Source: an uncultured Acidimicrobiia bacterium
GTDB taxonomy: Bacteria > Acidobacteriota > Terriglobia > Versatilivoradales > Versatilivoraceae
DNA length: 64,000 nucleotides
NCBI GenBank assembly: GCA_963786955.1
Contig: CAWBAT010000005.1
Location: 650,860-714,859 of the forward strand
Direction: 5' to 3'
This document shows, one piece after another, positions 13,405-54,489 of the stretch. Each line of letters begins with the position of its first letter. The first letter of the stretch is position 1. Made by a program: the position numbers and the translations under genes. A model generated the notes under the pieces. It made no database searches, was not told the DNA's origin, and saw nothing but the letters and a program-made list of their open reading frames with translations.

Positions 13405-15873
13405 TTGAGTCGTCAAAGTCCACTCTCAAAACCTGACAACATGGATCCTAATCTGGTCTTTGTACGTGTTGAAGGTGATGTTTTGTCTCTGCGCCCATTC
13501 CGCATACTGGCTCACTATGCGCGGAATGCTCAGGCCTTTACAGAGCGGGCCTTCCGACTCCCTGCCGTCGACTCTCATGACTCTCCTGCGGCCGGCCTTA
13601 TCCGTTGAAAATCCTGTTCTGGGGACTCGACTGCTCTATCTGCCACTTCGCGGAATGAGCCGCGACAGACTCGATCTTCTGGGCGAAGAATATTTCAACT
13701 ATGTTTTGTCTTCCCGATTAAGAAAGGAAGGGATTCGCCATATCGAAGAATTGCACGCGATGGGCAAAGAAGATCGTATTCGTGAGCGATCAATTGGATC
13801 ATCTCATCCGACCTCTGGCACTCCACCTTAAAGCCCATTTTCTCGCTACGAATCGCCTCGAATTTCGGGATGATCTGGCAACAGGGAGGCTTCTTGAACC
13901 TGTCATCCCCGCTTTGGGGGTCACCGCCGGTTTAACCTCGACGGAACGGAAAGAGTCCACCGGCTGGAAGGCCTTCGAAAAGGAGGTGGGGCCCCAAGAA
14001 TTCTCGACGGTGAATCCTCTTTCGATTCTCCCCGTGCACCGCCGAATCCGGGCGATCCATCATCCTATGGTCCAGTTCGCAAGACGGGATTCCACACTGA
14101 AGCCGTTGTCGGTCCGTGGAAGTTTATCCGGCAAAAAGATTCTTTTAATCGGCTGCACCGGATTCATCGGGAAGGTATGGCTGACCATGCTGCTGAAGGA
14201 TTTACCCGAAATCGGCCGCGTCTTCTTGCTGATCCGGCGTCATGGAAAACGGTCGGCACTGCAACGATTTGAAAAAATTGTTGCACGAGTCTCCGACCTT
14301 CAAACCCTTTCATGAATCCTATGGCAATCAGCTGGGTGAGTTTCTCGCTGAACGGATTGAGGTTATCGAGGGAGACGTTTCAGAGCCCCACCTAGGCCTT
14401 AACCCACAAACCGCTCGGCGCCTGTATGGCGAGCTCGATCTCATTGTCAATTCAGCAGGTTTGACAGATTTCAATCCGGACCTCCGGCTGGCCCTTTCGA
14501 CCAATGCGGACAGCGTGTTGCACCTGATCGAGTTTCTCAACAATTCGCAGAAGGCAGGGCTAGTCCATATTTCCACGTGTTTTGTTAACGGTCGCACCGA
14601 CGGCCGGGTCCCTGAAGAATTGCGGCGCAATTACACACCGAAAGGCAGAGTTGAATTTGACGCCATCTCAGAATGGAAGTTTCTGCACCAGGAAATCAAA
14701 CGGGTCGAAGAAGAATCTGAAAGCCCTTCACTCAACGAACAATTCCGAACCCAGGTGGTTTCCCGTTGGAAGGATGGGGAAGAAGCAGGTCCCGGACAGA
14801 AAGGTATTCAGAACCGGATCCGCAATTTGCGGACTCGCTGGGTGCGTGATCAGTTGATCGAAATGGGAGTGCAACGAGCTCAATATTGGGGATGGCCTAA
14901 CATCTATACCTTTACCAAGAGCCTTGGAGAATCCCTCCTGGAAAACAAAGGAGCCAGGCTCCCCTTCAGTATCGCACGGCCCTCCATAGTGGAATCCTCG
15001 GTTTTTCAGCCGTTTCGAGGCTGGAATGAGGGAGTGAATACGACAGCCCCGCTTTCCTATCTGCTCGGCACCTATTTTCGTCAGCTTCCGTCCAACAAGC
15101 GAAAGCGGCTCGATGTCATACCGGTCGACTTGGTCTGCAGAGGGATAACCCTGATTGCCGCCGCGCTAGTGCAACGAGGTCATGAAAAAGTTTATCAGCT
15201 TGCAACCTCTGCGACGAACCCGGCGAACATGCGACGGACGATTGAGTTGACCGCGTTAGCCCATCGTAAGCATTATCGTTCTTTGGAGGGGCTAGAACAT
15301 TGGCTTCGGGCCCGGTTCGACGCGATTGCCGTTTCGAAAACCCGCTACAAATACGTGTCCCTGCCAAGATTAAAAGGATTGCTACAAAGCGCTGAGAGCG
15401 TCCTTTCGCTCTTGCCATTCAAAGGGGACACTCTGGTGCGAAAGCAAAGGGCCCTGGACCGAGTGCAAAAAGTCATCGGACTTTACGAGCCTTTCATCTT
15501 GGATAATGACTACTTCTTTGCCGCCGATCATATCAAGGCGCTGGCCGAGTCGCTGCCGGATGAGGAGGCTCAAACGTTTGGTTACGATGTCTCTTCGATC
15601 GATTGGTATGACTACTGGATCGATCTCCATGTCCCGGCCTTGAGACGATGGACTTATCCTTTAATCGAAGGGCGTCGCCCGGAAACAGGCTTGTTACCGC
15701 GAAATTTCAAGCTCCCGGTAAAAGAAGAAGGTCATACTTCCGAGCTTTCGGAATCACTCGACCCAGCCTCAGCTAAGCCAGCAACTTCTTTGCTTCCATC
15801 CGAAAATTTGGGCAATGCTGCCGGGGCACCGGCAGGAGATAATTTTCAGGTGGCTGACCAGGATGGTAATTGA
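13405..15873 (+). CDS. HAD-IB-like hydrolase domain apparently fused in frame to a fatty acyl-CoA/ACP reductase (NAD_binding_4 / male-sterility domain); about 3 frame breaks
   Basis: N-terminal part resembles HAD-IB (…EDRI[V]FVSDQLDHLIRPLALHLKAHFLATNRLEFRDDLATGRLLEPV). In-frame continuation with no stop leads to a Rossmann motif KKILLIGCTGFIGKV. ORF 14242-15873 holds the reductase core (…DLIVNSAGLTDFNPDLRLALSTNADSVLHLIEF…HISTCFVNGR…) and a FAR C-terminal domain. Confidence 0.55.
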
Positions 15874-21180: not shown

Positions 21181-21280
21181 CGGGTAGTAGAATTCCTAGG
21201 ACTAAGCATTTCGAGAAAGTCGGGTCAGGATTTTGCCCCAACAGGCGTCAACAAAAATCTTGGGATAGAAATCACACTCA

Positions 21281-22360
21281 TATGGATTCTTTCAAAGGCA
21301 ATGCAATCTCATGGGGTTTGACAGAAGGCGTCGTGGAACTGGTCCTTCATCGCGAACCTTGTAATGAAATAGGCTCGGTGACACTGGCCGAGTTGGAACG
21401 TTTTGCCGATGCCCTCGAGAATTCTGGTCAGAAGCCCAGGCCCTGATTCTCTATAGCCGACTGGCTTCAGGGTTTTGCGCCGGAGCAGACTTGCGTGAGC
21501 TTTTCCGAGGAATTCAGCCGCTGAAAGCCGAGGATCGTTCAAACCGCGTGCGCGATTTTCTACTGCGGATTCATCGTGTTTTTAATGTGATCGACAGTGC
21601 GCCGATCACGACGATCGCGGCGGTTCACGGAGTGGTTTTTGGAGGCGGATTCGAGCTGGCCTTAACCTGCGATATGATCGTGGCAGACCGGACAGGCCGT
21701 TTTTGCTTCCCGGAGTTGCGATTGGGTCTCGTACCCGGATTTGGGGGGATTCCCCGAATGAAGCGGGATATTGGTAACGGCTTGGTGAGGGATCTTCTGC
21801 TGACGGGCCGGAGCATTAACGCGAATAAGGCATCCGCCGCAGGTTTGGTCAGTCAGGTCGTTGCTCCAGGAGAAGCCTTTCGGGTCGCGCGATCCGTCGC
21901 TTTGCAAGCAACCAAATTCGATCGCCGGGCAGCCCAAGTCGCTAAGGAATTCATCAAGCCGATTCCATACGCAGAGTTGCAGGAAGAAATCCGACTCTTT
22001 TGTGAACTGATGGGTCGGCCGGCCGTCGAAGAGGCATTCGCAAGTTTATTGAAAGCACTGACGCACAACCGTATCTCCCATAAATATCGAAAATATTACA
22101 AGGATCGATTCCCTTTATGCCTCATCTCGAGCAAACCCTTGCATGATTTGTTAAAGTTGGCCTCCGAGCATTTCCAGGTCCCCGTCAGCGAACTCAACCC
22201 CGACGAAGATTTTTTCAAGAAACTCAAGATCAATAGTCTCCAAGCCCTAGACCTATTGACCAAATTAGAACACCACTTTAACGTGGAACTCCCTGACTAT
22301 GAATTGCAGGGCGTAACAGATTTCAGAACCCTGGCGGAAAAAATCCAAGCGCGACTGTGA
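21281..22360 (+). CDS. enoyl-CoA hydratase/isomerase (crotonase) fused to a C-terminal acyl-carrier-protein-like domain; frame break near 21440
   Basis: Crotonase motifs (…AAVHGVVFGGGFELALTCDMIVAD…, LRLGLVPGFGG). The last roughly 80 aa, …DEDFFKKLKINSLQALDLLTKLEHHFNVELP, resemble a phosphopantetheine attachment site (Ser in an NSL context). Confidence 0.6.
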
Positions 22361-24083
22361 AACACACGGCCCCCGATTTATCTCCGTTCGCTTCTCTGGG
22401 CGAGGCCCTGCACATGGCTGCGCAGAAGTGGGACCACCACTTGGCTCTCATTGAAGCCGACCGTGAGCGCGAGAACTGCCGCCTGACCTACTCCCAATTT
22501 GAACAAGCCGCCCTTCCTATTGTTCAGGCCCTTCAAGAAGCCGGATTTGAATCCGAGCATCGAGCAGCGATAATCATGTCCAATCAGTCCAAATGGTTGA
22601 TTGCCGCCTATAGCCTTTTTTATGCTGGGGGCGTGCTGGTCCCCCTGGATTTCAAGTTGACACCTGCGGAACATTTGCAACTTCTGGCCCACGCCTCGGT
22701 AAGGTATTGATCGTGGAATTTCCTTTCTGGCTGGCAATAACTCAGACTCCGGCCTATAAGGAATTCGCCCTGTCCCCTAGTCCTCGTGACCGAGGCCCCC
22801 AAGACTGTGAAATTAGTGGGTGCACAGCGTTGGGAAGAGCGCACTCTTGCCGGAGCAAAGCCCCGCTTCGTACCAAGAACACGGCAAGACCTGGCCGGTA
22901 TCGTCTACTCCTCGGGTACGGGTGGGCAACCCAAAGGATGCATGTTGACTCACGACAATTATTTGGAGCAGTGCCAGTCATTGATGACCTGGTATCCGTT
23001 TTGGCCCGGAGTTCGTTATCTCAGCATCCTTCCAACAAACCATGCCATTGATTTCATGGTCGGATTTCTTGGACCTTTTTTTTGCGGAGCCACGGTTGTT
23101 CATCTCCGAACATTACGTCCCGAGTATCTCAAGGAGGCATTCCCACGCTATCGAATCACTTACGCCAGTGTTGTCCCCATGGTGTTAAAAGCCTTCGAAT
23201 CGGGTTTGAAGAACAAGTTCAAAGAATTCCCACCAAGCCGGCAATGGGTTCTCAGTTGTCTGATGCGCATCAACCGATGGTTAACGCGTAACCGCCCACG
23301 ACCGTGGATCAGCCGGCGGTTACTGCCCAATATTCATCAAGCCTTCGGCGGTGAACTGTTAGCCCTGATTACTGGGGGCGCCTTCGCAGAGCCTTCGACT
23401 TTGCAGTTTTTTTATGATCTCGGCATTCCCGTCGCCAACGGATACGGGTTGACGGAGGCCGGAACTGCTGTCACTGTCAACGATTTGAAACCCTTTCGAG
23501 CGGACACGGTGGGAAAGCCGTTGCCCGGGAGTTGAATTGAAGATTCTCGATGCGGATGCAGATGGGGTCGGACAAGTTGCGGTGCGAAGCAAGACTGTCA
23601 TGAGAGGCTACTTGAATGATCCTGAAATGACTGCTGAAGTGCTTGTCAAGGGGTGGTTGTTGACCGGCGACCTCGGACGAGTGGATGCAACCGGCCATCT
23701 CCTGCTGTTTGGGCGTTTGAAGAATATGATTGTGACCGAAGGGAGGGAAAAACATATACCCCGAGGATATTGAGTCTGCGTTTCAAGGCTTACCCGTTAA
23801 AGAGTTTTGCGTCTTTGCGGTCAATTATGTCTGGAAAAAACAGACCTTGGTCGGAGAACAGCTGATGCTCGTCGTTCAACTGGAACCAGGAGATGAGCTA
23901 ACTCCAGCCTTGATCGAGGAGCTGCAGACTCGCAACCTTCGGCTGGCAGATTTCAAGCGGGTTTCAGGCTATCTTCTTTATGACGAAGATTTCCCGCGTA
24001 CCGCTTCCCTGAAAATTAAGCGCAGGATTCTGGCTGAACGGATAGCCACAAAGCTGAACCGGACTGATGTGAGAACGCTATGA
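22357..24083 (+). CDS. second AMP-dependent acyl-CoA synthetase/ligase; at least 3 frame breaks
   Basis: GTG start overlapping the upstream stop. Motifs [23 protein letters not shown], …[13 protein letters not shown]… and …[25 protein letters not shown]… are spread across ORFs 22357-22710, 22786-23535, 23537-23773 and 23847-24083. Confidence 0.6.
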
Positions 24084-24097
24084 TAATTCGTGCGTTA

Positions 24098-24996
24098 TGA
24101 AACGTTACCTGGCTATCGTGAACCCTGCCGCCGGAGGAGGACGCTGCGGCAAGCTGGCATCCGAGACACTCGGGACAAATACGTGCGGGCGGGGTGGCGG
24201 TTGAAGTAGCTGGGACCCAACGCGCCGGAGATGCGACCGCCTTGGCAAGGGAAGGCTACGAACGGGGCTTCCGTCACTTCCTTGCCGTGGGAGGAGACGG
24301 GACAAGCTTCGAGATCGTGAACGGGTTGTTCCCGCGCGAGAACCAGACGGACAGGGTCGCGTTGGGATTTCTCCCCTTGGGGACCGGAAATTCCTTTCTC
24401 CGCGACTTCGCCGAAGCGGGTTTACCACACGCTATAGAGGCCATAATCAAGCAAAAAATAGACCGTGCGATGTCCTTTGTCTCAAACACGGGGGAGGCCA
24501 ATTGCATTACATCAATCTTGTGAGCTTCGGATTCACGGCTGAGGCAGGCACTTTGACAAACAGCCGGTTCAAGCCGTTGGGGGAGGTTGGCTACTTATTG
24601 GCCACTTTAATCTGCTGGATGAAACTCCATTACCCTACCTTTCCACTGCGCGTGGATGATGCCTCGGAGATTGATCACCGGCCTTGCACCTATTTAACCT
24701 TTTCAAATAGCCGCTATACCGGGGGGAAATTCATGATTGCTCCCTTCGCAAACACGGCAGACGGGTTGATTGAGCTGACACGAGTCGGAACCTTAAAGCG
24801 ATTAGATTTTGCTCGGACTTTTCCCAAAATATTTTCCGGAACTCACATGAGTCATCCGCTGATCTCACATGTGGGCGCCCACCGGGTCGATTTCCAAATT
24901 TCGCAGCCGATCGATGTCATGATTGACGGTGAAGTGGTGGCTTGCTTACCGGAGTCTATTGTCGTCTTGCCGCAAGCTCTCGATGTGATGGTATGA
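24098..24996 (+). CDS. diacylglycerol-kinase catalytic-domain lipid kinase (YegS/DagK-like); frame break near 24180
   Basis: [15 protein letters not shown]… then …[20 protein letters not shown]…[12 protein letters not shown]… (DAGK_cat) and a C-terminal beta-sandwich domain in ORF 24502-24996. Confidence 0.65.
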
Positions 24997-25790
24997 AGCA
25001 ATTTTATCTGATCATCCGCAGTGTTTTTCTCTGGATTCTCAGTGCCATTCATTTTTTTACTGTTTGTACCGGCTTGGTCATTCTGGGTATTTTCTTCGAC
25101 CCTCGCACCAATGATTGGCCTCAACGATGGTTCTTTCGGAATATCCTCCGCGTGGCTGGCGTGGGATTTCAAGTGAAGCGCTCACCCGGTTTCGACCCTC
25201 AACGCACGAGCATTTTTGTTTGCAACCACATTAATATTTTTGACGCATTCGTAATCTATTCGGCGATTCCGCAATTCGTTCGAGGTCTAGAACTGGAGTC
25301 TCACTTCAAGATCCCGGCCTATGGATGGATGATGAAACGATTTGGGAATATACCTGTAACGAAAGCTGGAGGGCCCTCACAATTCAAGAAAACTCTGGAA
25401 CACGTTAGGTCTCATATTGCGAACGGCATCAGCGTCATTATCTTTGCCGAAGGAACAAGAACACGGGATGGACGGGTTGGCCCGTTCCAGAAAGGTGGCT
25501 TTGTTATGGCCCACCACATTGGCGCGCCGATCGTTCCCATGAGCATCTGTGGGTCATTTGAATTCAACCGCAAGGGCAGCTGGATGCTACACCCCTCCAC
25601 AATCAACGTCTATCTGCACGACACGATCGAGACAACAGGGATCAAGAAAGAAGAATTAAACGAATTGGTAAAAGAGGTTCACCGAATTGTCTCTGAACCG
25701 GTCGATGCCTCTTTGAAAGTCCAGTCCGGCGCCCATCGATCAAACAAAGAGAACACGACAGGGGGACACAACTACAACTTAAGCGCTTGA
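24993..25790 (+). CDS. 1-acyl-sn-glycerol-3-phosphate acyltransferase (PlsC/LPLAT family)
   Basis: N-terminal TM, then the HX4D motif (FVCNHINIFD), …FGNIPV… and …VIIFAEGTRTRDGRVGPFQKGGF…, which are LPLAT blocks I-IV. Start taken at MKQFYLII. Confidence 0.8.
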   Translation: MKQFYLIIRSVFLWILSAIHFFTVCTGLVILGIFFDPRTNDWPQRWFFRNILRVAGVGFQVKRSPGFDPQRTSIFVCNHINIFDAFVIYSAIPQFVRGLELESHFKIPAYGWMMKRFGNIPVTKAGGPSQFKKTLEHVRSHIANGISVIIFAEGTRTRDGRVGPFQKGGFVMAHHIGAPIVPMSICGSFEFNRKGSWMLHPSTINVYLHDTIETTGIKKEELNELVKEVHRIVSEPVDASLKVQSGAHRSNKENTTGGHNYNLSA

Positions 25791-26211
25791 GACCGCTCAA
25801 GAGGGTTGGAATCGTTCTTCGAGCGGTAATTCACTGGTCACAGTTCTTCTCTCCTCTAATCCGCATGTAGATTCAATTCACTCCGGCACTATCGTATTAG
25901 TCCCACGCGGCCTCCTTGTGATGCAGGCGTCCCACCTGCAGCTCGCGATTGGACATTTCGGGAGAGGATAGGGCGCGACCGCTGGGGCGGCGCGCCGCGG
26001 ACGGCCTATGAGTTCAGCCCGCGGCCAGGAGGTTCTGTCGGCGCGCGGTCACTGTTGTGCTCCTCAGTTGTGGGTCGCGAATCTATCGGTCTCTTCACTT
26101 CGCCTGCTCAAAGTCTGTCTACTGCATAGTCTCGCCCACAATACGGTCATCCGCGTGAGACAGTCAGGTGCATTGAAAATGCCGTCGTCGATCTTTGGCT
26201 CCACTCACCTG

Positions 26212-27402
26212 TCAGAAAAGAATCTTGATCACCCGCGTGACCAACTCCTCAAGCGAAAAGACCGTCAGAGCCAACGGCAGAAGAGGCGCGGCGGTCACGG
26301 CGGCGAGTCTTGCGATGTCCTTAAGTCCGAAGGGCACGAGGCGCATCTCTTCAACAATCGAATAACTGTTTCCGAGATCGGCCAGCGACTGAATGTCGCC
26401 AGTGCCCAGAAGTTCATCGCCTTGTGCCGCGTTCCCCCGAACCCACTTGTCCTCAAATCCCTGGACGTAGCGGTTAGCGAGCAGTCCGTATGCGTCCAAT
26501 CCCCTCTGTTTCGCCCGCGCGAGCTGCGGCGTAAACATGACGAGTGGGCCGAGAAGGAACAGAACGAAGAAACCCACCAAGCTCACGGCTTCCATCTTGA
26601 AGGACAGCAAGCTCTCACCCTCGTACAGGATCCGACTGGCGATCATACCCGCCAGCAACAGGCCTTGGGCGAAAAGGATCGGTCCGAAGGCGTAGGTGCT
26701 CTTACCCAGGAAGGCTAGTCCGCCGGCTCGGTCCGGGTGGGTGGAGATGAGGCACAAGTTCAGCCTCGAGACCTGCCACAGGAACCGAAACCAGATAAGG
26801 AGCCGCAGATACCAGCGGAGCAAGATGAACTGAAAAATTGGAATACTGACGAAGGCATACCAGTACCCGGCAGGCGTGAGATGCAAATGGGTGCCTTGCG
26901 GCATCGCATACCAGGTTGCTGCACCGATGGCAATCTGGCTCCGCCAGAGCCATTGCCCGACCGTCCAGACTAGAATCACCAGCGCCACTTCCATGGGGGC
27001 CGAGTTGCGCACACGCTCGGCCGAGTGAATGGCGGCGTGGAATTTCGGCAGATCTTCGGAGACGACAATGTCCCGCTCCACGAACCGTGACACCACGGGG
27101 CGGACGCGCAAATGGACGATCAGCTCGGCGGCAATCAGCACCGGTAACGCGACCAGGAATCGAACCTGCACCTCGATGTCGTGTAAAAATGGGACCTTGA
27201 TGGCTCCGCCCAGCGCATGCCCGCCAATCAGCGACAATACCAATAGCGGGAGCCACGCGAAAAGCGAGATAAACAGAATTCGGCGGTGGAGCAACTCCAG
27301 TGCGTCTCCGGACACATGTGTCCGCCGGAACAGTTGATACAGAGGACCGCCCAAGCATAGCGAAAAGTCAGGCGATTCTTGGAGAGGCGTGGTTTTGTTC
27401 AT
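26212..27402 (-). CDS. polytopic membrane protein of unknown function (first gene of the high-GC block)
   Basis: 396 aa with about 8 predicted TM helices and no recognisable catalytic motif. GC is about 62%, against about 50% for flanking DNA. Confidence 0.5.
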   Translation of the reverse strand: MNKTTPLQESPDFSLCLGGPLYQLFRRTHVSGDALELLHRRILFISLFAWLPLLVLSLIGGHALGGAIKVPFLHDIEVQVRFLVALPVLIAAELIVHLRVRPVVSRFVERDIVVSEDLPKFHAAIHSAERVRNSAPMEVALVILVWTVGQWLWRSQIAIGAATWYAMPQGTHLHLTPAGYWYAFVSIPIFQFILLRWYLRLLIWFRFLWQVSRLNLCLISTHPDRAGGLAFLGKSTYAFGPILFAQGLLLAGMIASRILYEGESLLSFKMEAVSLVGFFVLFLLGPLVMFTPQLARAKQRGLDAYGLLANRYVQGFEDKWVRGNAAQGDELLGTGDIQSLADLGNSYSIVEEMRLVPFGLKDIARLAAVTAAPLLPLALTVFSLEELVTRVIKILF

Positions 27403-27474
27403 GGTGCAGGATCCTTAGAACTCAAGCCCCGGCCGCAGCAGGGTGCCTTGCGCGGTGGTCTTCCCAGATAAAAA

Positions 27475-27702
27475 TCATGTCATTCTTTGCTTGCTGAGCG
27501 GTACTGGTGTCCCAACACCCCACTGGCGGGCGGCCAACTTCAGCGCCAGTCCAGAGACCAGCGCGGCGGCGAGGTTGGTTTTCGTTTTCATGGTCGTGTC
27601 CTTTCTTTGTTTATCGGTTGCCGCGCCCGCCGCCTTGCGACGGCGGGCGCAGTTCTTATTACACTTACTGTGCGGCGGCGATGGTGGCTTTGCCTTCTTC
27701 AA
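27475..27702 (-). CDS. signal-peptide-like mini-ORF (MKTKT…) sharing a leader/RBS context with the sulfatase genes
   Basis: 75 aa beginning [21 protein letters not shown]. The upstream context gaaaggacacgaccATGaaaac parallels the sulfatase starts at 30076 and 33654. Could be a remnant N-terminus or a real small secreted peptide. Confidence 0.25.
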
Positions 27703-30076
27703 GTTTCTGCTGGTCCTGCGCCGTCAATGGCACGGGTTTCAAGTAAACCGTCACCTTCTTGAGCTCGCCGGTGAACTTGAACGGGACGTGGTAATCCTCG
27801 GTGACGGGTGTGCCGGTGTCCTCGCCGCAATCGAGCGTCTCGTCGAGCGAGAGGCGGAAGGCCAGTGTACGTTCGATGCGGCCGGTGGCCACGGTCTTGC
27901 CGTCCACCTGGATCGTGCCGACGCCGCCTTTGCCGAGGCCACCGCCATCGTATTTGAAGTCGTAAACGATGGTGTGCGCGCCTGGCGCAAGCTTGTCCTT
28001 ACCGGTGACAAGGTAGTGGGCGACACCGGCGAGGTTGTAGCAGAAGACCGGCTTGCCTTTGAGCAGGTAAAGTCCCCACCCGGAGAAACGTCCACCATGC
28101 GTGAGCAACATGCCTTCCGCGCCGCCCTTGGGGATGTCCACCTCGGCTTTGATCTGCCAGGACTTGTTCTTCGTGTCCGGCGCTGCGCCCTCGGGGATGC
28201 GCACGAGGCCGGGGTAGTAGGTGAACTCGTCCCGCCCGCGCGTCAGGCTGGGCCGGATGTTCACATCGAAGCGGTTAATCCTGCTGTTCTCGATCGGCAG
28301 CACATTGTATTTCTCGGCTTCCTTCCAGAAGAGGTCCTGCAGCTCCTTGAGCTTGGCGGGCTCTTTGGTCGCGAGGTTGTTCGCTTCGGAGAAATCCTCG
28401 CTGACGTTGTAGAGTTCCCACTTGTAGTCAAGGACGGAAGGCAATCGCCCTTCGATCTCGGCCGCCGAGTCCCACGGCGCAACCCCCGGCGTCGTGCAGG
28501 CGACCCAGCCATCGTGATAGATGCCCTGGTTGCCAAACATCTCGAAATACTGCGTCGTGTGTTTCGACGGCGCTTTTGCGTCATCGAACGTATAAACGAG
28601 GCTCGCGCCTTCAATGGGTTTCTGCGCCACACCGTTGATGCTCGTCGGCGCGGGCACACCGGCGGCTTCGAGCAACGTGGGCATGATGTCAATCACCGAG
28701 CAGAACTGCGAACGGATGCCGCCCACGTCCTTGATGCGCGCCGGCCAGGAGATGACCATGCCGTTGCGCGTGCCGCCGAAGTGCGAGGCGATCTGCTTGC
28801 ACCATTGGAACGGCGTGTCCATCGCGTGCGCCCAACCGACCGGGTAGTGGTTGAAGGTGTTCGGCCCGCCGAGTTCGTTCATGCGGCGCAGGACTTCCTT
28901 CATGTCTTCGGGGATGCCGTTGAACACCGTCATCTCGTTGAGCAGGCCTTGCATACCGCCTTCGCCGCTCGCGCCGTTATCGCCCTGGATGTAGATGACG
29001 AGCGTGTTGTCCAGTTCACCCTGCGCTTCGATGGTATCGAGGATGCGGCCCATCTCGGTGTCGGCGTGTGAGAGCGCCGCGGCATAGACTTCCATCATGT
29101 GGGCAAAAACTTTCTTCTGGTCGGCGTTCAAGCTGTCCCACGCAGGAATGCCAGCGGAACGCTCCGTCAACTTCGTATTCGCCGGGATGATGCCCGCCGC
29201 CTTCTGCCGCGCGAAAGTTTCCTCCCGCACCTTGTCCCAGCCTTGATCGAACTTTCCCTTGAACTTCGCGATCCAATCCGGCGGTGCGTGATGCGGCGCA
29301 TGGGCCGTGCCCGTCGCGTAGTAGGCGAGGAAGGGCTTGCCCGGCGCGGTCGCGTGCTGCATCCGAATCCAGTCAATGCAATGGTCGGCCATGTCATTGT
29401 CGAAGAAGTAATTCTTCGCGTCATGCGGCGGCTCGATGGGTTTCGTGCCCTCGAAGAGCGCCGGATTCCACTGACTCGTGTCGCCGCCGATGAAGCCGTA
29501 GAAGTATTCAAACCCCAGCCCGGTGGGCCACAGGTCGAACGGCCCCGCCTGGCTGGTCATCCAGTCGGGGACGTTGTGGTTCTTGCCATACCAGGACGTG
29601 TTGTAGCCGTTCTGCTTCAGAATCTCGGCGAACGTCCCGTCGCTCTTCGACATCAGGGAGTTGTAGCCGGGGAAGCCAGTGGCCAGTTCCATGATGACGC
29701 CGGTGTTGGCGCTGTGATGATTGCGTCCGCTGAGCAGTGCGGCGCGCGTGGGCGAGCAAAGCGCCGTGGTGTGGAATTGATTGTAGCGAAGTCCGTTTTT
29801 GGCCAGGCGATCCATCGTCGGCGTGGGAATCGGCCCGCCAAACGTGGATGACGCCCCGAAGCCCACATCATCGGTGAGGATGACGAGAATGTTCGGCGCG
29901 CCTTTCGGTGCTGCGACACCCTTGGGGAAATCCGGCGTGGACTCCTTGGGCGTGCGGCCAATCTTGCCGCCGAAGGGTTGTTCGGGTCGGGGCAGGACTT
30001 GTTGCGCCCTTGCCGGTAGCGCATAGGCTGTGGCCAGCACAAGGATCAGAACGGCGAGCATGGTTTTGGTTTTCAT
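27665..30076 (-). CDS. arylsulfatase-family sulfatase (Cys-type), secreted
   Basis: 803 aa with signal peptide [24 protein letters not shown]. Sulfatase signature ILTDDVGFG…[15 protein letters not shown] (C-x-P-x-R), followed by a C-terminal beta-sandwich extension. Confidence 0.9.
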
Positions 30077-30248
30077 GGTTGTTTTCCTTTCATTGGTTGC
30101 TTGGTTGACCCGCGGCAGCGTCAGCGAGCACGGCGGCGAGGAATTGGGGAGTTTTCATTTTCATAGTTTTGTTCTTTCTTTGGTTGATTGGTTCGCTGGT
30201 TAACGCGCGAGCCGTCCACTCGGACAGCCCGCGTGTTTCACAATCGAA

Positions 30249-31883
30249 TCATTTCAGTTTCAGTTGCTGGAGCTTCTTCGCCGCCGTACCGAACTGACCA
30301 AGCTGATAGACCGCTGCGCCCGCCGGTGAAAAGGTGAACGCCACAAACGGTTCGGCCAGCATTCCATCCAAGTATTCTTTGCTGGCGACGCCAGTGCTGA
30401 CATGCGGATTGAAATTCTCGCCGGTGCCCTTCGGCACAAACACGGAAACGTATTTGATCAGGAACGGATCAATGACCGGATCTTCGGGCGTAGTGACGAA
30501 CGCGGACGAGTCGCCGGTTTCCACCGTGAACGGAGCAACGGCGGCGATGATGTCCGCCTGGAGTTTAAGTAATTCCGGGGTCGGCTTCGCGCAGATGCCC
30601 GCAAGGCCGATGGGACCGCTTGCGACGTAGTAGTATTTGAAGGCTTCCAGCTTCATCGCGGTCACGTTGGCTTTGGCGATGACTCTTCCAGCAGCGTCAT
30701 AGACCTTGTCGAGGTCGGCGGTGCGGACGTAGCGCTGGATCAGCGTGATGTGCGGACGGTGCGTCGCATCCAGTGAAAAGCCTTTCGGGTAAACCTTCAG
30801 CAGGCGGGCGTTGTTCACTTCGCTTTCCTTGAGCATCGTGGCGTCCGGCTCCAGCAAGATGTCAATGGCCGTGCCAGCGGCTTCCTCGGCAGGGAAGACT
30901 GATTTCCAATCGTTCTTCATATTCACGACCACCCAGCCGTTCGCAGCGGCGGCCTTCAACGAGGCGTTGTCCGGCTCGGCGTAAGCGAACTCGCGCGCGG
31001 CATCGTCATGGTTGACCATCAGTTGGAGCGTCGCGCCGGGGCGGCTCTGACAGTAGCGCAGCATGGCGATGTCGCCGCCGGAGAAGACGTTCCCGGCCGA
31101 CAGTATCGGCTTGCGACCGATGTGCTGATTGATGCCAACGGGCTTGCCCTCTTTGTCATCGATGAAATTCAGCTCCGGCAGACGCAAGAGCACCGGCTGG
31201 CCGTCGCGGATTTCAAACCTCGTTTTGATACTGCTGCCGACGACCTGCTCGGGCGGGATCTCATAGACCTTTTCCGTCCACGGGCGCATGAACTCGATGC
31301 CACCGCCGGAGACGATGTAGTTCTTGAAACCGTTGGCGCGCAGGTAGGCGAGCACTTCGAGCATGGGCTGATAGACCATCTCAGTGTAAGGCCGCCCGGT
31401 CGTCGGATGCTTCGCCGTACCGATCCAATCCTTCACCATCTTCTCAAACTCCACGGTGGTCATGCCTGCATGCGTGGCCATGATGATTTCGAGCAAGGCG
31501 TGTTCTCCGCCCGCCATCGAGCCTTTCACGTCACCCTTGAGCAACGAGGCGAACGGTTCCGTCGTCTTCCATTCCGGGTGCTGCGGCGCGAGCGCCTTCA
31601 CGCCGTCAAGCGCGAAGTATAATTGGACGGGCACCGGCTTCTCACACCAGAGCGTGCCGTCGTTGTCGAACGTGGCGATGCGTTCCGGTACCGGCACGAA
31701 ATCCGGCGAACCGGGTTTGGTGACCTTGGCGACAAATGCGACGATGGATTTCTTGGCCGCGCCGTCGTTCCACGAGGGAAGCGGGTCGCTTTGCGCTCGT
31801 GCTGTACCAACTGCGCCGCCGACAAGTAACGTCGCGAAGGCAACAGCAAGTATGAAGCTGAAGGCAGCTTTGTTCGTTCTCAT
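30249..31883 (-). CDS. secreted HAD-superfamily hydrolase domain protein (phosphatase-like), C-terminal domain unknown
   Basis: 544 aa with signal peptide. HAD motif I FDNDGTLW, …SGGGIEFMRPW… and NVFSGGDI…. The C-terminal roughly 250 aa are unrecognised. Confidence 0.5.
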   Translation of the reverse strand: MRTNKAAFSFILAVAFATLLVGGAVGTARAQSDPLPSWNDGAAKKSIVAFVAKVTKPGSPDFVPVPERIATFDNDGTLWCEKPVPVQLYFALDGVKALAPQHPEWKTTEPFASLLKGDVKGSMAGGEHALLEIIMATHAGMTTVEFEKMVKDWIGTAKHPTTGRPYTEMVYQPMLEVLAYLRANGFKNYIVSGGGIEFMRPWTEKVYEIPPEQVVGSSIKTRFEIRDGQPVLLRLPELNFIDDKEGKPVGINQHIGRKPILSAGNVFSGGDIAMLRYCQSRPGATLQLMVNHDDAAREFAYAEPDNASLKAAAANGWVVVNMKNDWKSVFPAEEAAGTAIDILLEPDATMLKESEVNNARLLKVYPKGFSLDATHRPHITLIQRYVRTADLDKVYDAAGRVIAKANVTAMKLEAFKYYYVASGPIGLAGICAKPTPELLKLQADIIAAVAPFTVETGDSSAFVTTPEDPVIDPFLIKYVSVFVPKGTGENFNPHVSTGVASKEYLDGMLAEPFVAFTFSPAGAAVYQLGQFGTAAKKLQQLKLK

Positions 31884-32019
31884 GTTGCTTCCTCCTGATC
31901 ATATGAACCGCAGGGCATAGTCCTTGCTGCGCCGTATGCCTTACCGTCACCCACTACCATGAGGTGGTTTTTTCGCCGCGGGCAGCCCTTGCGGACCGCC
32001 CGCCATGTATGCGTCCGTG

Positions 32020-33654
32020 CTACTTCGAACCGCCGCCTTCCTTCAGCTGCTGAAATACTTCATCCATGTTGAAGCTGGCCGCCTTCTGCCGCTGCGGGTA
32101 GTCCTTGAATGTCATCAGAAACTGGCCCACATACGCCTGCGCAGGGACCAACAAGAAGGCGTGATCCAGCAGCCAGTCGTAGTAGGTGTTCGACGTGATG
32201 TCCGCCCGTTCATACGGATCCGTCCGGAGATTGAAGATCTTCGGGACCCGCAAGCTGGTGAACGGGTTCGCCCAGATCAACATCGTTCCAGGGGCCCGCT
32301 GCTCCATGAATGCAAGCTTCCAATTGTCGTAGCGCAACCCGGTCAATTGCTGGTCGTCGTTGATGTACAGGAACGATTCCCGCGGGCTCTTCGCGGCTTG
32401 CCCGGTCAGGTAAGGGACGAGGTTGTCGCCGTCAAGGTGAACCTTGTACGTCCTGTCTCCAACCTTGTAGCCCTTGAGCAGCTCGTCCTTAATCTGCGTG
32501 TCGCCGGCCATGGCCACAAAGGTCGGCAGCCAATCGAGGTGGGCGACGATGTCGTTGGACACACTGCCTGGCTTGATCTTGCCCGGCCATCGGACCATGG
32601 CGGGCACCCGGTAGGCCCCTTCCCAGTTCGAGTTCTTCTCGCTGCGAAACGGCGTCATGGCTCCGTCTGGCCAGCTGTTCATGTGCGGACCGTTGTCGGT
32701 TGAGTACATGACGAACGTATTGTCCGCAATGCCCAGGTCATCCAGCACCTTGAGGACCGTGCCGACATTCTTGTCGTGGTCGATCATGGTGTCGTGGTAC
32801 GGGCTCTGCCAGCGCCCCGACTGGCCGATGCTCTCCGGCTTGGTGTGGGTGCGAAAGTGCATGTGGGAGAAGTTCACCCAAACAAAAGCCGGCTTGCCGG
32901 CCTTGTTCTGCCGCTGGATGAAGTCCACGGCCCGGTTGGCAACGTCATCGTCAATCGTTTCCATCCGCTTCTTGGTCAAGGGACCAGTGTCAGTGCACAC
33001 CTGCTTGCCGACCTTGCCGAAGCGCGGGTCGACGGTCGTGTCGTCCTTGTCCGAGGCCTTGCAGTCCAGCACGCCGCGCGGGCCAAACTTGGCATGGAAT
33101 GCCGGGTCTTTCGGATAGTCCGGCAGTTCCGGCTCTTCCTCGGCGTTGAGGTGATACAGGTTGCCGTAGAACTCGTCAAAGCCGTGGACGGTAGGCAGAT
33201 ACTCGTTGCGGTCGCCCAGGTGATTCTTGCCGAACTGGCCAGTGGCATAGCCTTGTGCCTTCAACAGCTCGGCAATCGTCGGGTCTTCCTTTTGCAACCC
33301 TACCGTAGCGCCCGGCAGGCCGACCTTCGTCAGACCAGTGCGCAAGCCGGACTGGCCGGTGATGAACGAAGCGCGACCGGCGGTGCAACTCTGCTCGGCA
33401 TAGTAGTCGGTGAAGATCATGCCTTCTTTCGCAACACGGTCAATGTTAGGTGTGTGAAAGCCCATCAGTCCCATCGAGTAGGCACTGATATCAGATTGGC
33501 CGATGTCATCACCCCAGATGATGAGGATGTTGGGTTTTTTGTCAGCGGCCTGCGCCGAAGCGAGGACGCCCCATGTCAGCCCGAAGGCCAGTAAGAGGTT
33601 CTTGAAGATAGTTTGTTTCATGGATGTTTCCTTTCGTTTTGGATTGGCCTTCAA
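32020..33654 (-). CDS. sulfatase (Cys-type, C-T-A-G-R), secreted
   Basis: 544 aa with signal peptide. ILIIWGDDIGQSDISAY…CTAGRASFITGQ sulfatase signature, plus …GKNHLGD…. Confidence 0.9.
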   Translation of the reverse strand: MKANPKRKETSMKQTIFKNLLLAFGLTWGVLASAQAADKKPNILIIWGDDIGQSDISAYSMGLMGFHTPNIDRVAKEGMIFTDYYAEQSCTAGRASFITGQSGLRTGLTKVGLPGATVGLQKEDPTIAELLKAQGYATGQFGKNHLGDRNEYLPTVHGFDEFYGNLYHLNAEEEPELPDYPKDPAFHAKFGPRGVLDCKASDKDDTTVDPRFGKVGKQVCTDTGPLTKKRMETIDDDVANRAVDFIQRQNKAGKPAFVWVNFSHMHFRTHTKPESIGQSGRWQSPYHDTMIDHDKNVGTVLKVLDDLGIADNTFVMYSTDNGPHMNSWPDGAMTPFRSEKNSNWEGAYRVPAMVRWPGKIKPGSVSNDIVAHLDWLPTFVAMAGDTQIKDELLKGYKVGDRTYKVHLDGDNLVPYLTGQAAKSPRESFLYINDDQQLTGLRYDNWKLAFMEQRAPGTMLIWANPFTSLRVPKIFNLRTDPYERADITSNTYYDWLLDHAFLLVPAQAYVGQFLMTFKDYPQRQKAASFNMDEVFQQLKEGGGSK

Positions 33655-34135
33655 CCGGAATTTCCATTTTGAGTTTTCTGACGGGAACTAGTGGACGATA
33701 TCAGAAGGAATGGAACAACTGTGAGTACACTGAAGCACATACTCAGCGTGGGGAAGACAAATTTAATCATAGCAGATCAACCCTTAGAATCACTTACATC
33801 TATCAATCCACGGTGCGAAGGGCTAGCTGAGGTAGACTTTCGTTTCAGGTCGAAGCCCAAACTTTCGTCCAACTCGCGCACGAGAACCAAGCCACCGTCG
33901 GAGGTGATTTGTGATCCCTGAATACCGATCTTCAGGAAAGCTATTGAAGGAGAGCTGAAAGGGTTGGTTTTGTTTCTCAGCCATTAGTTGTGGGCCTCCA
34001 GAGCGTGTTCTTTGCGTCGCAATCCGCAAAAATTAAAGACGTTCGAAGGCCCCATAAGGTTGTCAATAGCTACTTCACAATGAAAATCTGGGCTTATGCA
34101 TCACCGCTGAGGCAGGCAGTTGCGGGAAAAACGCC

Positions 34136-35872
34136 TCACCCCTGCGTGGTTTTTGGAACACGCTTCCGGTCTCCCATTCTCGACTGAACTTCTCTATGGA
34201 AGAGGGCCCGAAACAAGTCAAATTGAGCTCTGTAGAGCTTCCACTTCTTCCGCTGAAAGAAAGCCAGGCTGGAGCATACCAGCGCCCTGGCTAATCGGAA
34301 TGAGATCTCTCCATTGACATTCAGCAACCAGGGATCCTCCCACTTCAGAGGTCCCACCCCCTTCTTACCCAGAGGGGTGAGTAATACAACCTTCCGGATG
34401 GTCTTTTCCGGAAGAAATCGATAATTGTGGTTCCACCCTTGCCCACTCAGCCCCAAGGGCCCGGCACCCCATGGCAACGACGTTGCGAAGGCAACACCCG
34501 GGTAAATATTGATGCCGACAACTCCATGTCGGAGTTCTGTGGCAAATCGTTTCACTTCCGGATTAGAGGGATCAGAGGTGAAGACGGAGATGCCTAAATC
34601 ACCGGCCAATGCAGAGGAATTGGCAAACTCTAAGGCCTTCTCGAGGAAGGAATCATCAGGCAGAGTCAACAGAGCTGCCACCGGACCGAAGGCCTCTTCG
34701 CGAAGAAAAAGAGCATCCCTGTCAATACCTGCAATCAGTGTCACTGGGAATCCTCTGTCTTTAGCTTTCGGGTGAATTGGGATGACCTCGGCTCCTGCCA
34801 GATGCAGTTCTTCAAGCTTCGCCTGCAGACGATCGGCTGACGGATGATCAATAAGTAAACGGTCTCCGTGATGTTCTCCTTCCCGGCGGGCGGCCAAAGA
34901 AATCTCTTCACAAAGCACTGCCTTAAAAGATTGGCAGTAAGAGTCGGGTATGACGATGAGCTGAAAACTGACACAATGTTGACCGTTGTTTGCCAGCATT
35001 CCATAAGCTGCTTGGCGTGCCACCTGCCGCATTCCCTCCCGCTGCGAAAAGACGTCTGGAAGAACGAGAGCTGCGGTAACGCCTCCCAATTCCGATGTGA
35101 CCCTTTTGGAGCCAGCAGCTCGCGTGATAGCACTTCCAGTCTGAACGCTCCCCGTGACGTGGATATGATCAAACTCAGGCTGTTCCACGAGCCAGGCGCC
35201 CACCTCGGGTCCGCCATATACAAAACTCAAGGCATTCGAGTCAACAAATGGGGCAAAAATTTTCTCCAGGTAAGGCCCACTAAAGCCAACCTTCTCAGAA
35301 ACCTTGGCAATAACTCGAAGTCCCCTATAGCAGAGCAAGTGGACTATATCCAGCGCCCCGATGCTGACCAGATTAAAAGGAAGGAGGCAGAGTGCAATAC
35401 CCTTACTTGGCTTTGCTTCATCTGTCGGAGCCTCTTTAGGCTGCAACGTGAGGTGATCCTCGGGTCGATTAAACACGACATATCCGGTGACACCCGGAAG
35501 CAGCATCTTCTCCAGTCGATTTGCGGGAAGAATGCGAGAAGCAGGAAAGCCGCCAAAGTCGGTCAGCGAGGGAGAGACCGCCTGCTTCAAATATTGTTCC
35601 AAGGTTTGAGCTGGATTGGCACTCTTCAGAGATTCAGAAATGGAGAGAATTCCCCAGACAGACGGAAACACAGTCTCAAAATAGACCTCCGCAGGAGTGA
35701 TCCCCATTCGTTCGGCCGTCTCATATGCTAAAGGGTCACCGTAAAAAAGGAATAGTTCGGCGACTCTCTCAAGCAAAGAGGAAATCTCACCAACGGACTT
35801 GAGACGCCAGGCAGATGAAGCTTCCGCGTCTACTAGAATTTTGAGGGTGTTATTCAGAGAAGAATGGCTCAT
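34136..35872 (-). CDS. aldehyde dehydrogenase superfamily protein (divergent; N-terminal extension)
   Basis: 578 aa with ELGG (SELGGVTAAL) and a catalytic-Cys context NGQHCVSFQ, plus …EEAFGPVAAL…. The annotated start abuts the tRNA 3' end (6 nt), so the true start may be internal. Confidence 0.55.
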   Translation of the reverse strand: MSHSSLNNTLKILVDAEASSAWRLKSVGEISSLLERVAELFLFYGDPLAYETAERMGITPAEVYFETVFPSVWGILSISESLKSANPAQTLEQYLKQAVSPSLTDFGGFPASRILPANRLEKMLLPGVTGYVVFNRPEDHLTLQPKEAPTDEAKPSKGIALCLLPFNLVSIGALDIVHLLCYRGLRVIAKVSEKVGFSGPYLEKIFAPFVDSNALSFVYGGPEVGAWLVEQPEFDHIHVTGSVQTGSAITRAAGSKRVTSELGGVTAALVLPDVFSQREGMRQVARQAAYGMLANNGQHCVSFQLIVIPDSYCQSFKAVLCEEISLAARREGEHHGDRLLIDHPSADRLQAKLEELHLAGAEVIPIHPKAKDRGFPVTLIAGIDRDALFLREEAFGPVAALLTLPDDSFLEKALEFANSSALAGDLGISVFTSDPSNPEVKRFATELRHGVVGINIYPGVAFATSLPWGAGPLGLSGQGWNHNYRFLPEKTIRKVVLLTPLGKKGVGPLKWEDPWLLNVNGEISFRLARALVCSSLAFFQRKKWKLYRAQFDLFRALFHREVQSRMGDRKRVPKTTQG

Positions 35873-35877
35873 TGGGT

Positions 35878-35975
35878 TGGCGGAGGCGAATGGGAATCGA
35901 ACCCACCTATCGCAACAAAGTTACGACACGCTGGTTTTGAAGACCAGGAGAGTCACCAGGCCCTCTGCACCTCCG
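35878..35975 (-). tRNA. selC: tRNA-Sec candidate (anticodon UCA), class II with a long variable arm
   Basis: Reverse-complement reads CGGAGGUG-C-AGAGGGCCUGGUGACUCUC-CUGGU-CUUCAAA-ACCAG-C-GUG-UCGUAAC-UUU-GUUGCGA-UA-GGUGGG-UUCGAUU-CCCAUU-CGCCUCCG-CCA. Anticodon loop CUUCAAA (U33, UCA, A37) is identical to E. coli selC. It has an 8-bp-capable acceptor, 5-bp T-stem and TTCGATT T-loop, 7-bp variable stem, and encoded CCA. About 97 nt. Confidence 0.65.
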
Positions 35976-36068
35976 GGTTGACTATAGCATATCGAAAGGC
36001 AACGCCGGGATCATCTTGTGGTCTTCACTTAGAGGTTGTTTTTGTCCTGAATCCTGCCTACCCTAAGA

Positions 36069-36704
36069 ATGTTTACTCTGGGGAGGAGGATTATGGTAGA
36101 GGAGCTTGTATTAGCGTTCCCGCGTAAAATATTGGATGAGATCGGGGATTTCCAGGGGATTGAATTCAATGTCGCACGCTACATTCCCGCCATCCTTGAC
36201 AAGACTAACTGCCGTTTCCTACCTCGCGCCGCGGCGGAAAGTGACCCGAGCTACAAACAAATTATTTCCTACGTGTTGATTCGAAAGGGAAATGCCTGGT
36301 TGCATTATGTAAGGGGTAAAGCTTCAGGGGAAAAGCGCTTGGTCGCTAAGAGCTCGATCGGGATTGGAGGCCATATCAATCCACATGACCAGAGCCTCTT
36401 TGATAGCGGGTTGGATTTTTATGAAACAGCCGTCCAGCGGGAACTCCGGGAAGAACTGCGAATGGATGGAGTTTTTAAAACCCAGGTCGTTGCCCTGCTC
36501 AATGACGATTCCAGTGCGGTGGGGCAGGTTCATTTGGGGATAGTCCATCTTTGCACATTAACCGATGAAATCGTGTCAAAAGGCGAAGCCAGCCTCACGG
36601 GATTAGCATTTTTGACTCAGGAAGAGTTATTGAAACGTAAGGAACAAATGGAGACGTGGTCTCAGTTTTGCTTGGATCACCTGGAGAAAATTGGGGGAGC
36701 CTGA
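36069..36704 (+). CDS. NUDIX hydrolase
   Basis: Nudix box GGHINPHDQSLFDSGLDFYETAVQRELREELRMDG (Gx5Ex7REUxEExGU). 211 aa; the start may be the internal MVEELV at 36093. Confidence 0.7.
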   Translation: MFTLGRRIMVEELVLAFPRKILDEIGDFQGIEFNVARYIPAILDKTNCRFLPRAAAESDPSYKQIISYVLIRKGNAWLHYVRGKASGEKRLVAKSSIGIGGHINPHDQSLFDSGLDFYETAVQRELREELRMDGVFKTQVVALLNDDSSAVGQVHLGIVHLCTLTDEIVSKGEASLTGLAFLTQEELLKRKEQMETWSQFCLDHLEKIGGA

Positions 36705-36710: not shown

Positions 36711-36736
36711 CGCGCTCGGCGAGCGCGCCCTACCAA
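36711..36736. repeat. 26-nt palindromic direct repeat, copy 1 (cgcgctcggcgagcgcgccctaccaa)
   Basis: Identical to the copy at 36827-36852. Internal near-perfect palindrome cgcgctc-ggc-gagcgcg. Lies 7 nt after the NUDIX stop. Confidence 0.6.
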
Positions 36737-36780
36737 TAGCGTCAACCAATAGCAGTTGAGGCATGGGCACGATCAAGGTA

Positions 36781-36802
36781 GGGCGGTCTCGCTGAGACCG
36801 CC
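36781..36802. repeat. hairpin gggcggtctc-gct-gagaccgcc between the two 26-nt repeats
   Basis: Perfect 9-bp inverted repeat (ggcggtctc / gagaccgcc) around a gct loop. Confidence 0.5.
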
Positions 36803-36826
36803 ATTTCAATTTATAGATTCCTTCGG

Positions 36827-36852
36827 CGCGCTCGGCGAGCGCGCCCTACCAA
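36827..36852. repeat. 26-nt palindromic direct repeat, copy 2
   Basis: Exact second copy. Ends 34 nt before the enoyl-CoA hydratase start codon. Confidence 0.6.
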
Positions 36853-53027: not shown

Positions 53028-53344
53028 CGCCATTGCCAAAAACTCTAGTCACACCCAACGACAAGGCCGTGGGGGTGTTGGGGCCAGCCCTCAAAAATCA
53101 AATTAGTTCAGTACACCCGGAAAAAGATCGGTGACCAGACCAAAGCCCTGTACGAATCCTTGTGTGAGACAGTACATCTTAGCTTGGGGCCACGAAACTG
53201 TCCCTGCAGCAAAATACAGGATGACACTCTCTTACCTCTTCACGGACCAACACACTAGATTTGGATGTTTAGCTCGCGCCCGAGCACAAAAATTCACTAG
53301 CCACAAGGCTTCCTCGGGATCATTTCTGCTTGCATAAATCCCTT

Positions 53345-53440
53345 TCTAGATCAGGTCTTCGCGGCATTTGGCTCATGAAAGAGAAATGAGATAAAGGTGA
53401 ACGGTGCCACACTCAAATAGGTTGAATCTTTACTGTAGGT
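53345..53440 (+). repeat. hairpin-repeat family, degenerate partial copy (tail half only)
   Basis: gtcttcgcggcatttggctcatgaaagagaaatgagataaaggtgaacggtgccacactcaaataggttgaatc aligns with the tail of copies a and b. Confidence 0.5.
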
Positions 53441-54300: not shown

Positions 54301-54360
54301 GAACGGGACTGGGGTCACATCTTTCCTTTTTCCAAAAACGAGCGTGGAAGGGGCCGCGGG

Positions 54361-54480: not shown

Positions 54481-54489
54481 ATCCTAATT

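Follow-up and report, generated by a model that had tools for sequence, protein, structure and literature searches.

A small GC-rich islet of sulfatase and HAD hydrolase genes, very probably a recent acquisition, in an uncultured acidobacterium

The stretch of DNA analysed here, which we call the window (64,000 nucleotides; positions 650,860 to 714,859 of contig CAWBAT010000005.1, assembly GCA_963786955.1), has a GC content of about 50% outside a single GC-rich block, and the question it raises is how this block, which encodes two sulfatases, a HAD hydrolase and a membrane protein, came to lie between a plsC-like acyltransferase gene and an aldehyde dehydrogenase gene. A first-pass annotation of the window had proposed horizontal acquisition. 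The syntenic site in close relatives, where the annotation had suggested looking for homologues, lacks the genes in both L001 and L012, and the block is set off by a break in composition. We conclude that the island was very probably acquired horizontally and recently: a small segment would have been inserted between plsC and the aldehyde dehydrogenase gene of an uncultured, Terriglobia-like acidobacterium of ~50% GC. The block is an ordinary, well-supported small genomic islet, and it reveals no new mechanism.

The compositional step is pronounced. Positions 25850–33700 have a GC content of 0.593 compared with 0.497 for the rest of the window, where stretches of the same length (7.85 kb) have a mean of 0.498 (sd 0.014) and reach at most 0.519. 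Followed in 1-kb steps, GC climbs from ~0.50 to 0.57–0.62 in the interval from ~25.85 to 33.4 kb and drops again beyond it, with change points of the cumulative curve at ~25901 and 33399; the earlier figure of about 62% is slightly high, being reached only locally. The GC content of third codon positions (GC3) is 0.72–0.81 in the four island genes (0.77 overall) as opposed to 0.50–0.56 in 18 host genes (0.54, sd 0.019), and the contrast is concentrated at these positions. Measured against the host profile, tetranucleotide distance is 30–38 within the block and 11–14 elsewhere, a threefold difference. For all three measures the 64-kb window alone served as the host reference. The inserted segment extends beyond the limits given in the first-pass annotation, to ~34162, and ends in a low-GC remnant of an IS1380-family insertion sequence (IS).

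Comparison with relatives reveals the site in both its empty and its occupied state. Relatives were found by scanning species-representative genomes with the aldehyde dehydrogenase, which yielded L001 (CAWEPG010000006.1), and by a scan of metagenomes, which yielded L011 and L012. The flanks in L001 are 88–92% identical to the window at the nucleotide level over 30 kb, and window segments 21262–25772 and 34163–36682 map to neighbouring L001 segments only ~370 bp apart. The site is also empty in the more distant relative L012 (77–81% nucleotide identity), and plsC and the aldehyde dehydrogenase gene are separated by 300–335 bp in these two genomes. The left limit of homology with L001 falls ~16 nt past the plsC stop codon and the right limit ~27 nt within the 3′ end of the aldehyde dehydrogenase gene, whose stop codon occupies 34136–34138 (Table 1). 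When the spacers of L001, L012 and the window were searched for a shared target sequence they proved mutually unalignable, and the exact ends of the insertion are not definable; this spacer is, as judged from the three versions, a fast-changing region. Two successively deeper relatives are without the block, and the parsimonious reading is that it was gained once the lineage of L001 had split off.

The occupied site was seen only in L011 and L016, which are strains with flanks 97–98% identical to the window. L011 (98% nucleotide identity) bridges the right junction, running from the aldehyde dehydrogenase gene through the non-coding stretch to the start of the second sulfatase gene, sulf544. 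The short contig L016 bridges the left junction, and carries plsC (97%), the gene for the membrane protein memb396 and the 3′ end of the first sulfatase gene, sulf803, with its island part 93% identical. L016 is collinear with the window except that its blastn blocks abut where the window has a 195-bp GC-rich stretch at the left edge of the island. This stretch matched no RNA family in Rfam at a permissive threshold and showed no excess folding energy; part of it (25911–26006) resembles, at 79%, positions 9562–9649 of contig L015, which lie upstream of a lone memb396 homologue.

Two readings would dispense with a recent insertion. The first is that a foreign contig was misjoined during assembly or binning: sudden shifts in GC are characteristic of chimeric joins, the source is uncultured and several of the host genes appear frameshifted. 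The joins recur, however, in three independent assemblies, which include that of the right junction in L011 (JGI) and that of the left junction in L016 (ENA), and an identical memb396 protein is on record on a 1.76-Mb contig. The presence of both junctions in independent metagenome assemblies argues that the block is not a chimera, and we attach a negligible probability to that explanation. The block might instead be ancestral, lost independently in the relatives and driven to high GC by selection or biased gene conversion; the spacers of L001, L012 and the window have nothing in common, as a fast-changing region would allow, and the island has itself suffered internal deletions. Such a history would need two independent clean losses, at ~10% and ~22% divergence, and it is hard to square with a GC3 that lies more than 10 host sd away and equals that of orthologues on contigs of 58–61% GC, or with sulf803 proteins that are 80–93% identical across labelled phyla while host NuoD is only ~70% identical outside the Acidobacteriota. 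We consider it very unlikely.

Table 1. Features of the island and its borders (window coordinates; strand cell empty where none is given).
Feature	Position	Strand	Evidence or remark
plsC-like acyltransferase, host flank	24942..25790	+	PF01553 2.4e-20; syntenic, ~91% nt L001, 97% L016
Inserted segment, maximal extent (~8.36 kb)	25807..34162		L001 homology stops ~25806 and restarts 34163; same pattern in L012
195-bp GC-rich non-coding stretch, left edge of island	25852..26046		Absent from strain contig L016
memb396, multi-helix membrane protein without family, 396 aa	26212..27402	-	Recurs in cluster family
Relic ORF, 38 codons, leader and signal-peptide stub	27475..27591	-	Repeat family D1; resembles N-terminus of L005 sulf471
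GC-rich intercistronic hairpin after sulf803 stop	27623..27650		10-bp all-GC stem; conserved in L014
sulf803, secreted Cys-type arylsulfatase (C-S-P-T-R), 803 aa	27665..30076	-	PF00884 1.3e-59
Relic ORF, 24 codons, signal-peptide stub	30090..30164	-	Resembles signal peptide of L003 DUF1254/1214 gene at this position
Conserved intergenic element after HAD-2H stop	30184..30249		Hairpin 30207-30233 and A/C-rich leader
HAD-2H, predicted secreted two-domain esterase, 544 aa	30249..31883	-	N-terminal HAD and C-terminal 2H-phosphoesterase-like domain
GC-rich hairpin after sulf544 stop	31977..32003		Inverted repeat I1
sulf544, secreted Cys-type sulfatase (C-T-A-G-R), 533 aa from ATG 33621	32020..33621	-	PF00884 1.5e-51
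IS1380-family transposase 5′ remnant, one frameshift, ~68 codons	33780..33984	-	PF13701, NF033539
Aldehyde dehydrogenase, host flank	34136..35872	-	PF00171 3.5e-38; aa identity 86% L001, 99% L011, 73% L012
tRNA-Sec	35878..35974	-	ARAGORN; Rfam RF01852 68.7 bits

The identity of the recipient follows from NuoD. The window NuoD is 98% identical to the one on the 601-kb contig of L001 and 88% to that of a Terriglobia metagenome-assembled genome (MAG). Identity is ~80% with Acidobacteriota MAGs and does not exceed ~70% with the handful of named matches from other phyla, a pattern that indicates an acidobacterial host. The label of L001, 'uncultured Acidimicrobiia bacterium', is probably wrong, as its NuoD groups with Terriglobia/Acidobacteriota and its GC content is ~49%.

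The cargo belongs to a wider family of gene clusters. One contig, L003, encodes a 538-aa sulfatase (sulf538), HAD-2H, a DUF1254/1214 protein and sulf807, with PPK2, DUF2252, a membrane protein and bestrophin further along; L004 carries several sulfatases, Ysc84 and two paralogues of the membrane protein. In L005–L010 the cluster comprises a two-component system, sulf542, an NPP phosphodiesterase, a 242-aa 2H-like protein and a 275-aa protein, followed by sulf803, sulf471, an outer-membrane channel and a 388-aa protein. The gene order of the window is L003-like with genes missing, and the shared genes are collinear with these donor-type contigs. The cargo is a trimmed copy of a widespread cluster of Sec-exported ester hydrolases, retaining a sulfatase of 533 aa, HAD-2H, a sulf803 that resembles the Pseudomonas aeruginosa arylsulfatase (PAS), and memb396. 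Since the L003, L004 and L005–L010 contigs, on which the nearest copies are found, are uniformly 0.58–0.62 GC over ~20 kb, the cluster genes are compositionally at home in them; sulf803 orthologues there have a GC3 of 0.80–0.82, compared with 0.81 in the window. The donor would have been an organism of ~58–61% GC, and no trend towards host composition was detected among the few informative changes on the window branch (9 GC-to-AT and 9 AT-to-GC).

The first-pass annotation had raised an affinity to Planctomycetota or Verrucomicrobiota. The few named relatives of sulf803 do include Planctomycetota (80–82% identity) and Phycisphaerales, but the cluster of P0006, which is 90% identical to the window, adds 'Deltaproteobacteria', and the donor cannot be pinned to one phylum. 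The much stronger conservation of sulf803 than of NuoD across labelled phyla suggests that sulf803 has been transferred repeatedly. In a tblastn search of plasmids, members of the sulf803 family were at most 59% identical.

All four genes lie on the minus strand and encode the proteins that the first-pass annotation described, and the plus-strand open reading frames (ORFs) are, as it had judged, artefacts: they have no Pfam match and run antisense to genes with hundreds of near-identical homologues. Both sulfatases contain the active-site motifs it had read, and score 202.5 and 176 bits against the Sulfatase domain (PF00884; cut-off 25). Residues 60–585 of sulf803 align with PAS (PDB 1HDH/4CXK) at ~1e-61, with the DD, CSPTR, GKxH and DNG motifs in register. 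Its homologues, 80–93% identical, occur in very many metagenome contigs, and full-length relatives annotated as arylsulfatase or atsD on Nostoc, Rhizobium, Sphingobium and Mycobacterium replicons are 52–59% identical. No Pfam family matches the C-terminal 221 aa (window 27665–28330, residues ~585–803); this extension of ~220 aa lies outside the solved PAS structure and is conserved at 80–93% among homologues. For the second sulfatase, a TTG at 33654 could serve as an alternative start and would lengthen the protein to 544 aa. The enzyme is most similar to PDB 7AJ0 (4.5e-52) and human ARSA (1.5e-44), and is 88% identical in amino acid sequence to its homologue in L003. Sec-type signal peptides can be read directly from the sequences of sulf803, HAD-2H and sulf544. 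For the sulfatases to be active, another part of the genome would have to supply a formylglycine-generating maturase.

The protein previously described as a secreted HAD hydrolase has the signal peptide and the HAD domain: residues 33–333 match PDB 4OVY over its full chain (1.4e-115) and include FDNDGT, a DxDxT-type motif, with a Pfam HAD score of 26.1 that falls just under the cut-off of 27. What the description missed is a second, probable 2H-phosphoesterase domain. Over residues 331–544 the protein shares 72% identity with a 242-aa protein that stands alone in L005 and itself has a weak match to PF13563 (2_5_RNA_ligase2), and two H-x-T/S motifs, H378-I-T-L and H494-V-S/T, are invariant in four sequences. 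HAD-2H itself scores 20.7 bits with PF13563 (E 4.5e-4), below the cut-off of 27; a single-sequence AlphaFold2 (AF2) model was unusable (pLDDT, the model's per-residue confidence score, 34), and a profile search of the PDB returned spurious matches. We regard the protein as probably a fusion of HAD and 2H-phosphoesterase domains. On the basis of family membership, the cargo enzymes would act on organic esters in the periplasm and set free inorganic sulfate and probably also phosphate, a function to which we give a little more than even confidence.

The fourth protein, memb396, has thousands of homologues. Its gene occurs alone, without sulfatases, at positions 10001–11191 of L015, with a local GC3 of 0.74 in a contig of GC3 0.58–0.61, and next to DUF2252 and a 473-aa sulfatase in L017 and L018; it seems to travel both with and without sulfatases.

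Two small ORFs between the island genes record what the cluster has lost. Each has a sulf803-like leader, an MK(T/M)KT start and a signal-peptide-like continuation, and their sequences mark them as relics of deleted genes: two genes of the ancestral cluster were removed, each leaving its ribosome-binding leader and a signal-peptide stub. Contig L014 has the entire stub–sulf803–stub–memb396 module at 93.9% nucleotide identity, and its copy of the 38-codon stub contains an in-frame stop (MKITRR-stop). The shared leader noted in the first-pass annotation is real and confined to the block within the 64 kb, but was wrongly assigned to the second sulfatase, which starts MKQT and has only 'gaaaggaaaca.cc ATG AAA' in common with it; the start motif ATGAAAA[CT]NAA[AG] occurs three times in the window, at sulf803 and at the relics starting at 27591 and 30164. 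A ~40-nt A/C-rich leader and MKTK start also precede homologous and non-homologous genes in four contigs, and by this comparison the leader is a feature of the whole cluster family. A GC-rich hairpin lies downstream of each stop codon. The intergenic element that follows HAD-2H is 85–88% identical to two intergenic sites in L005 and is paired by inverted repeat I1 with the hairpin that follows sulf544. A promoter scan gave no signal above shuffled controls. We also considered an integron cassette array and rejected it: there is no intI, the hairpins are 26–28-nt GC stems without core sites, and a nearby GTTAACC is unlike GTTRRRY.

These repeated units invite a broader reading, in which the island is one of a promiscuously exchanged modular family, the hairpin–leader–MKTK units serve as recombination joints and IS1380 elements carry sub-clusters between phyla. 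With such joints, non-homologous genes such as those for sulfatases, NPP and Ysc84-like proteins could be exchanged, lost or fused with no need for an integron integrase. Leaders of identical type stand ahead of unrelated genes in four contigs, the modules of L014 and the window break exactly within the leader stub, and the HAD and 2H domains are fused in some clusters and apart in others, all of which is consistent with this idea. The hairpin–leader–signal-peptide unit could also simply reflect convergent selection on translation-initiation and signal-peptide sequences together with ordinary deletions, and we think the modular reading improbable.

How the island entered the genome is suggested by its right border, where the first-pass annotation had reported no integrase and no repeats. 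A Pfam scan indeed found no integrase, and neither direct nor inverted repeats above chance were present at the borders, but it is wrong that nothing is recognisable there. The 480 bp between the second sulfatase gene and the aldehyde dehydrogenase gene, with a GC content of 0.47, contain the 5′ remnant of an IS1380-family transposase gene, which matches positions 2–40 of 435 in PF13701 (E 6.7e-6) and 2–45 of 419 in NF033539 (E 6.4e-5); both matches fall below the curated whole-protein cut-offs because only ~45 residues are left. The remnant is also present in L011, where it is more diverged than its surroundings, as expected of a pseudogene. A single copy of ISEcp1/ISEc9, of the IS1380 family, moves the DNA downstream of it by using weakly related alternative right ends, and produces 4–5 bp duplications (PMC12116815); alternative right inverted repeats (IRRs) may have only 3–12 bases in common (PMC12116815). 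The remnant here sits immediately upstream of the cargo, on the strand of the cargo genes, and reads towards them, which makes ISEcp1-like one-ended transposition the most likely route: it would have carried adjacent DNA into the site, after which the transposase gene would have decayed. We hold IS1380-mediated insertion as a leading but tentative hypothesis, short of an even chance.

Two other routes were weighed against it. An island targeted to selC, in the manner of the selC pathogenicity islands of E. coli, was suggested by the tRNA-Sec gene, which lies 1.7 kb beyond the right boundary and has its 3′ end facing the block. The tRNA and the intervening aldehyde dehydrogenase gene are, however, syntenic in island-free relatives; L001 has tRNA-Sec at the same place beside the same aldehyde dehydrogenase gene, and the tRNA is therefore not the attachment site. 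No integrase is present, and the sole tRNA-like repeat is an 18-nt, 83% match inside memb396, at chance level. The empty-site comparison effectively rules this route out. More weight must be given to the possibility that the island is foreign but was not brought in by an IS. It could have come by transformation or conjugation, say, and been joined to the site by illegitimate or flank-guided recombination; the IS1380 stub would then be an unrelated resident or later insertion, truncated in the event. Related modules in L014, L015, L017 and L018 are without any IS, and that of L014 is joined to a different upstream gene at a breakpoint inside the leader stub, which points to recombination at the repeated leaders. 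The GC content of the stub is host-like, in contrast to 0.59 for the cargo. The position and orientation of the stub are nonetheless those that one-ended IS1380 transposition predicts, and their chance juxtaposition in a 300-bp spacer is less economical. We rate arrival without an IS at nearly an even chance.

The combined explanation, in which a recently acquired hydrolase cluster with the proposed function entered by an IS1380 route, we consider likely as a whole, and several points weigh against it. Neither a terminal inverted repeat pair nor a target-site duplication was found at the borders, and the spacer varies too much among relatives for the original target to be rebuilt. A search for left inverted repeats (IRLs) and IRRs, in which 33985–34165 was compared with the reverse complement of 25790–26215, gave 8-mers at best, and alternative IRRs can be very weak. 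The IS remnant, at 47% GC, is unlike the cargo and may stem from a separate, unrelated insertion before or after that of the cargo. The nearest cargo homologues are only 93–94% identical, so that the actual donor is not among the organisms sampled, and the MAG taxon labels behind the cross-phylum spread may be unreliable. The 2H fold assignment consists of a sub-threshold Pfam match and motifs. Finally, the island and all window ORFs of at least 150 aa proved to lack an FGE or anSME maturase, in agreement with the first-pass annotation, and so did the donor-type loci examined (L003, L004 and L005–L010).

Several features elsewhere in the window were recorded. A dispersed repeat of ~100 nt with two hairpins (GTTGAGGCTTTGAGAAAGCCTCAAC, GGCCTACAAAGTTGCAGGCC) lies at 2829–2932, with a partial tandem copy at 2795–2832; copies 79–86% identical occur at 2780–2877 of L012, by the tRNA-Sec region, and at 7222–7322 of L014, 60 nt downstream of the memb396 gene. 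It may be a lineage-specific miniature inverted-repeat transposable element (MITE) or an element like the repetitive extragenic palindromic (REP) sequences, and its presence suggests a related host as the source of L014, with the module in other surroundings. A perfect 26-nt direct repeat at 36711–36736 and 36827–36852, the copies being 116 nt apart, contains the palindrome CGCGCTCGGCGAGCGCG in each copy; overlapping blast blocks suggest that L011 and the window differ in copy number here, and the L012 spacer holds a 35-nt piece related to window 36775–36808. A 65-nt element in the plsC/aldehyde dehydrogenase spacer of L012 (4885–4948) recurs at 85% identity among RHS-repeat fragments at window 57393–57457, as a small dispersed repeat. 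A NapC/NirT-type cytochrome and two multihaem cytochromes with MtrC/MtrF-like domains are encoded at 1336–2127, 4762–6576 and 6874–7878, and may form an extracellular electron-transfer module. Several host genes appear split or truncated at 13782–15873, 21491–23535 and 51001–58150 (NAD_binding_4 over two overlapping ORFs, a partial AMP-binding ORF and three RHS-repeat fragments); these are either pseudogenes or assembly frameshift errors.

The locus offers a clean, datable case of sulfur- and phosphorus-scavenging genes entering an uncultured acidobacterial lineage. Because its empty and occupied sites both exist in environmental populations, it is useful for understanding how soil and sediment bacteria gain organosulfate hydrolysis. 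The highly conserved and apparently cross-phylum sulfatase cluster, together with memb396, provides candidates for functional work.

The island can be set beside several known systems. It shares with classical tRNA-associated islands the compositional break, the absence from relatives, the accessory metabolic cargo and a tRNA nearby, but differs from them in having neither an integrase nor a tRNA-derived direct repeat, and in that the tRNA lies off the junction. Another likeness is to ISEcp1/ISEc9 units, which mobilise genes such as blaCTX-M: an IS1380 transposase stands directly upstream of several kb of unrelated cargo and reads towards it, and there is no recognisable IS at the far end. In contrast to those units, only ~68 frameshifted codons are left here, no IRL, alternative IRR or 4–5 bp duplication was found, the IS stub and the cargo differ in GC, and the cargo consists of hydrolase genes in an environmental acidobacterium rather than a resistance gene on an enterobacterial plasmid. 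The HAD part of HAD-2H resembles the structural-genomics HAD hydrolase 4OVY over the full chain and in its DxDGT motif, whereas the island protein has an added C-terminal 2H-like domain that is a separate 242-aa protein in other clusters. Like PAS/AtsA (1HDH) and the ~780-aa 'AtsD'-type arylsulfatases, sulf803 has the active-site Cys and the motifs for metal and sulfate ligands, and it aligns with PAS from end to end. PAS is cytoplasmic, whereas sulf803 has a Sec signal peptide and an additional C-terminal domain of ~220 aa that belongs to no family.

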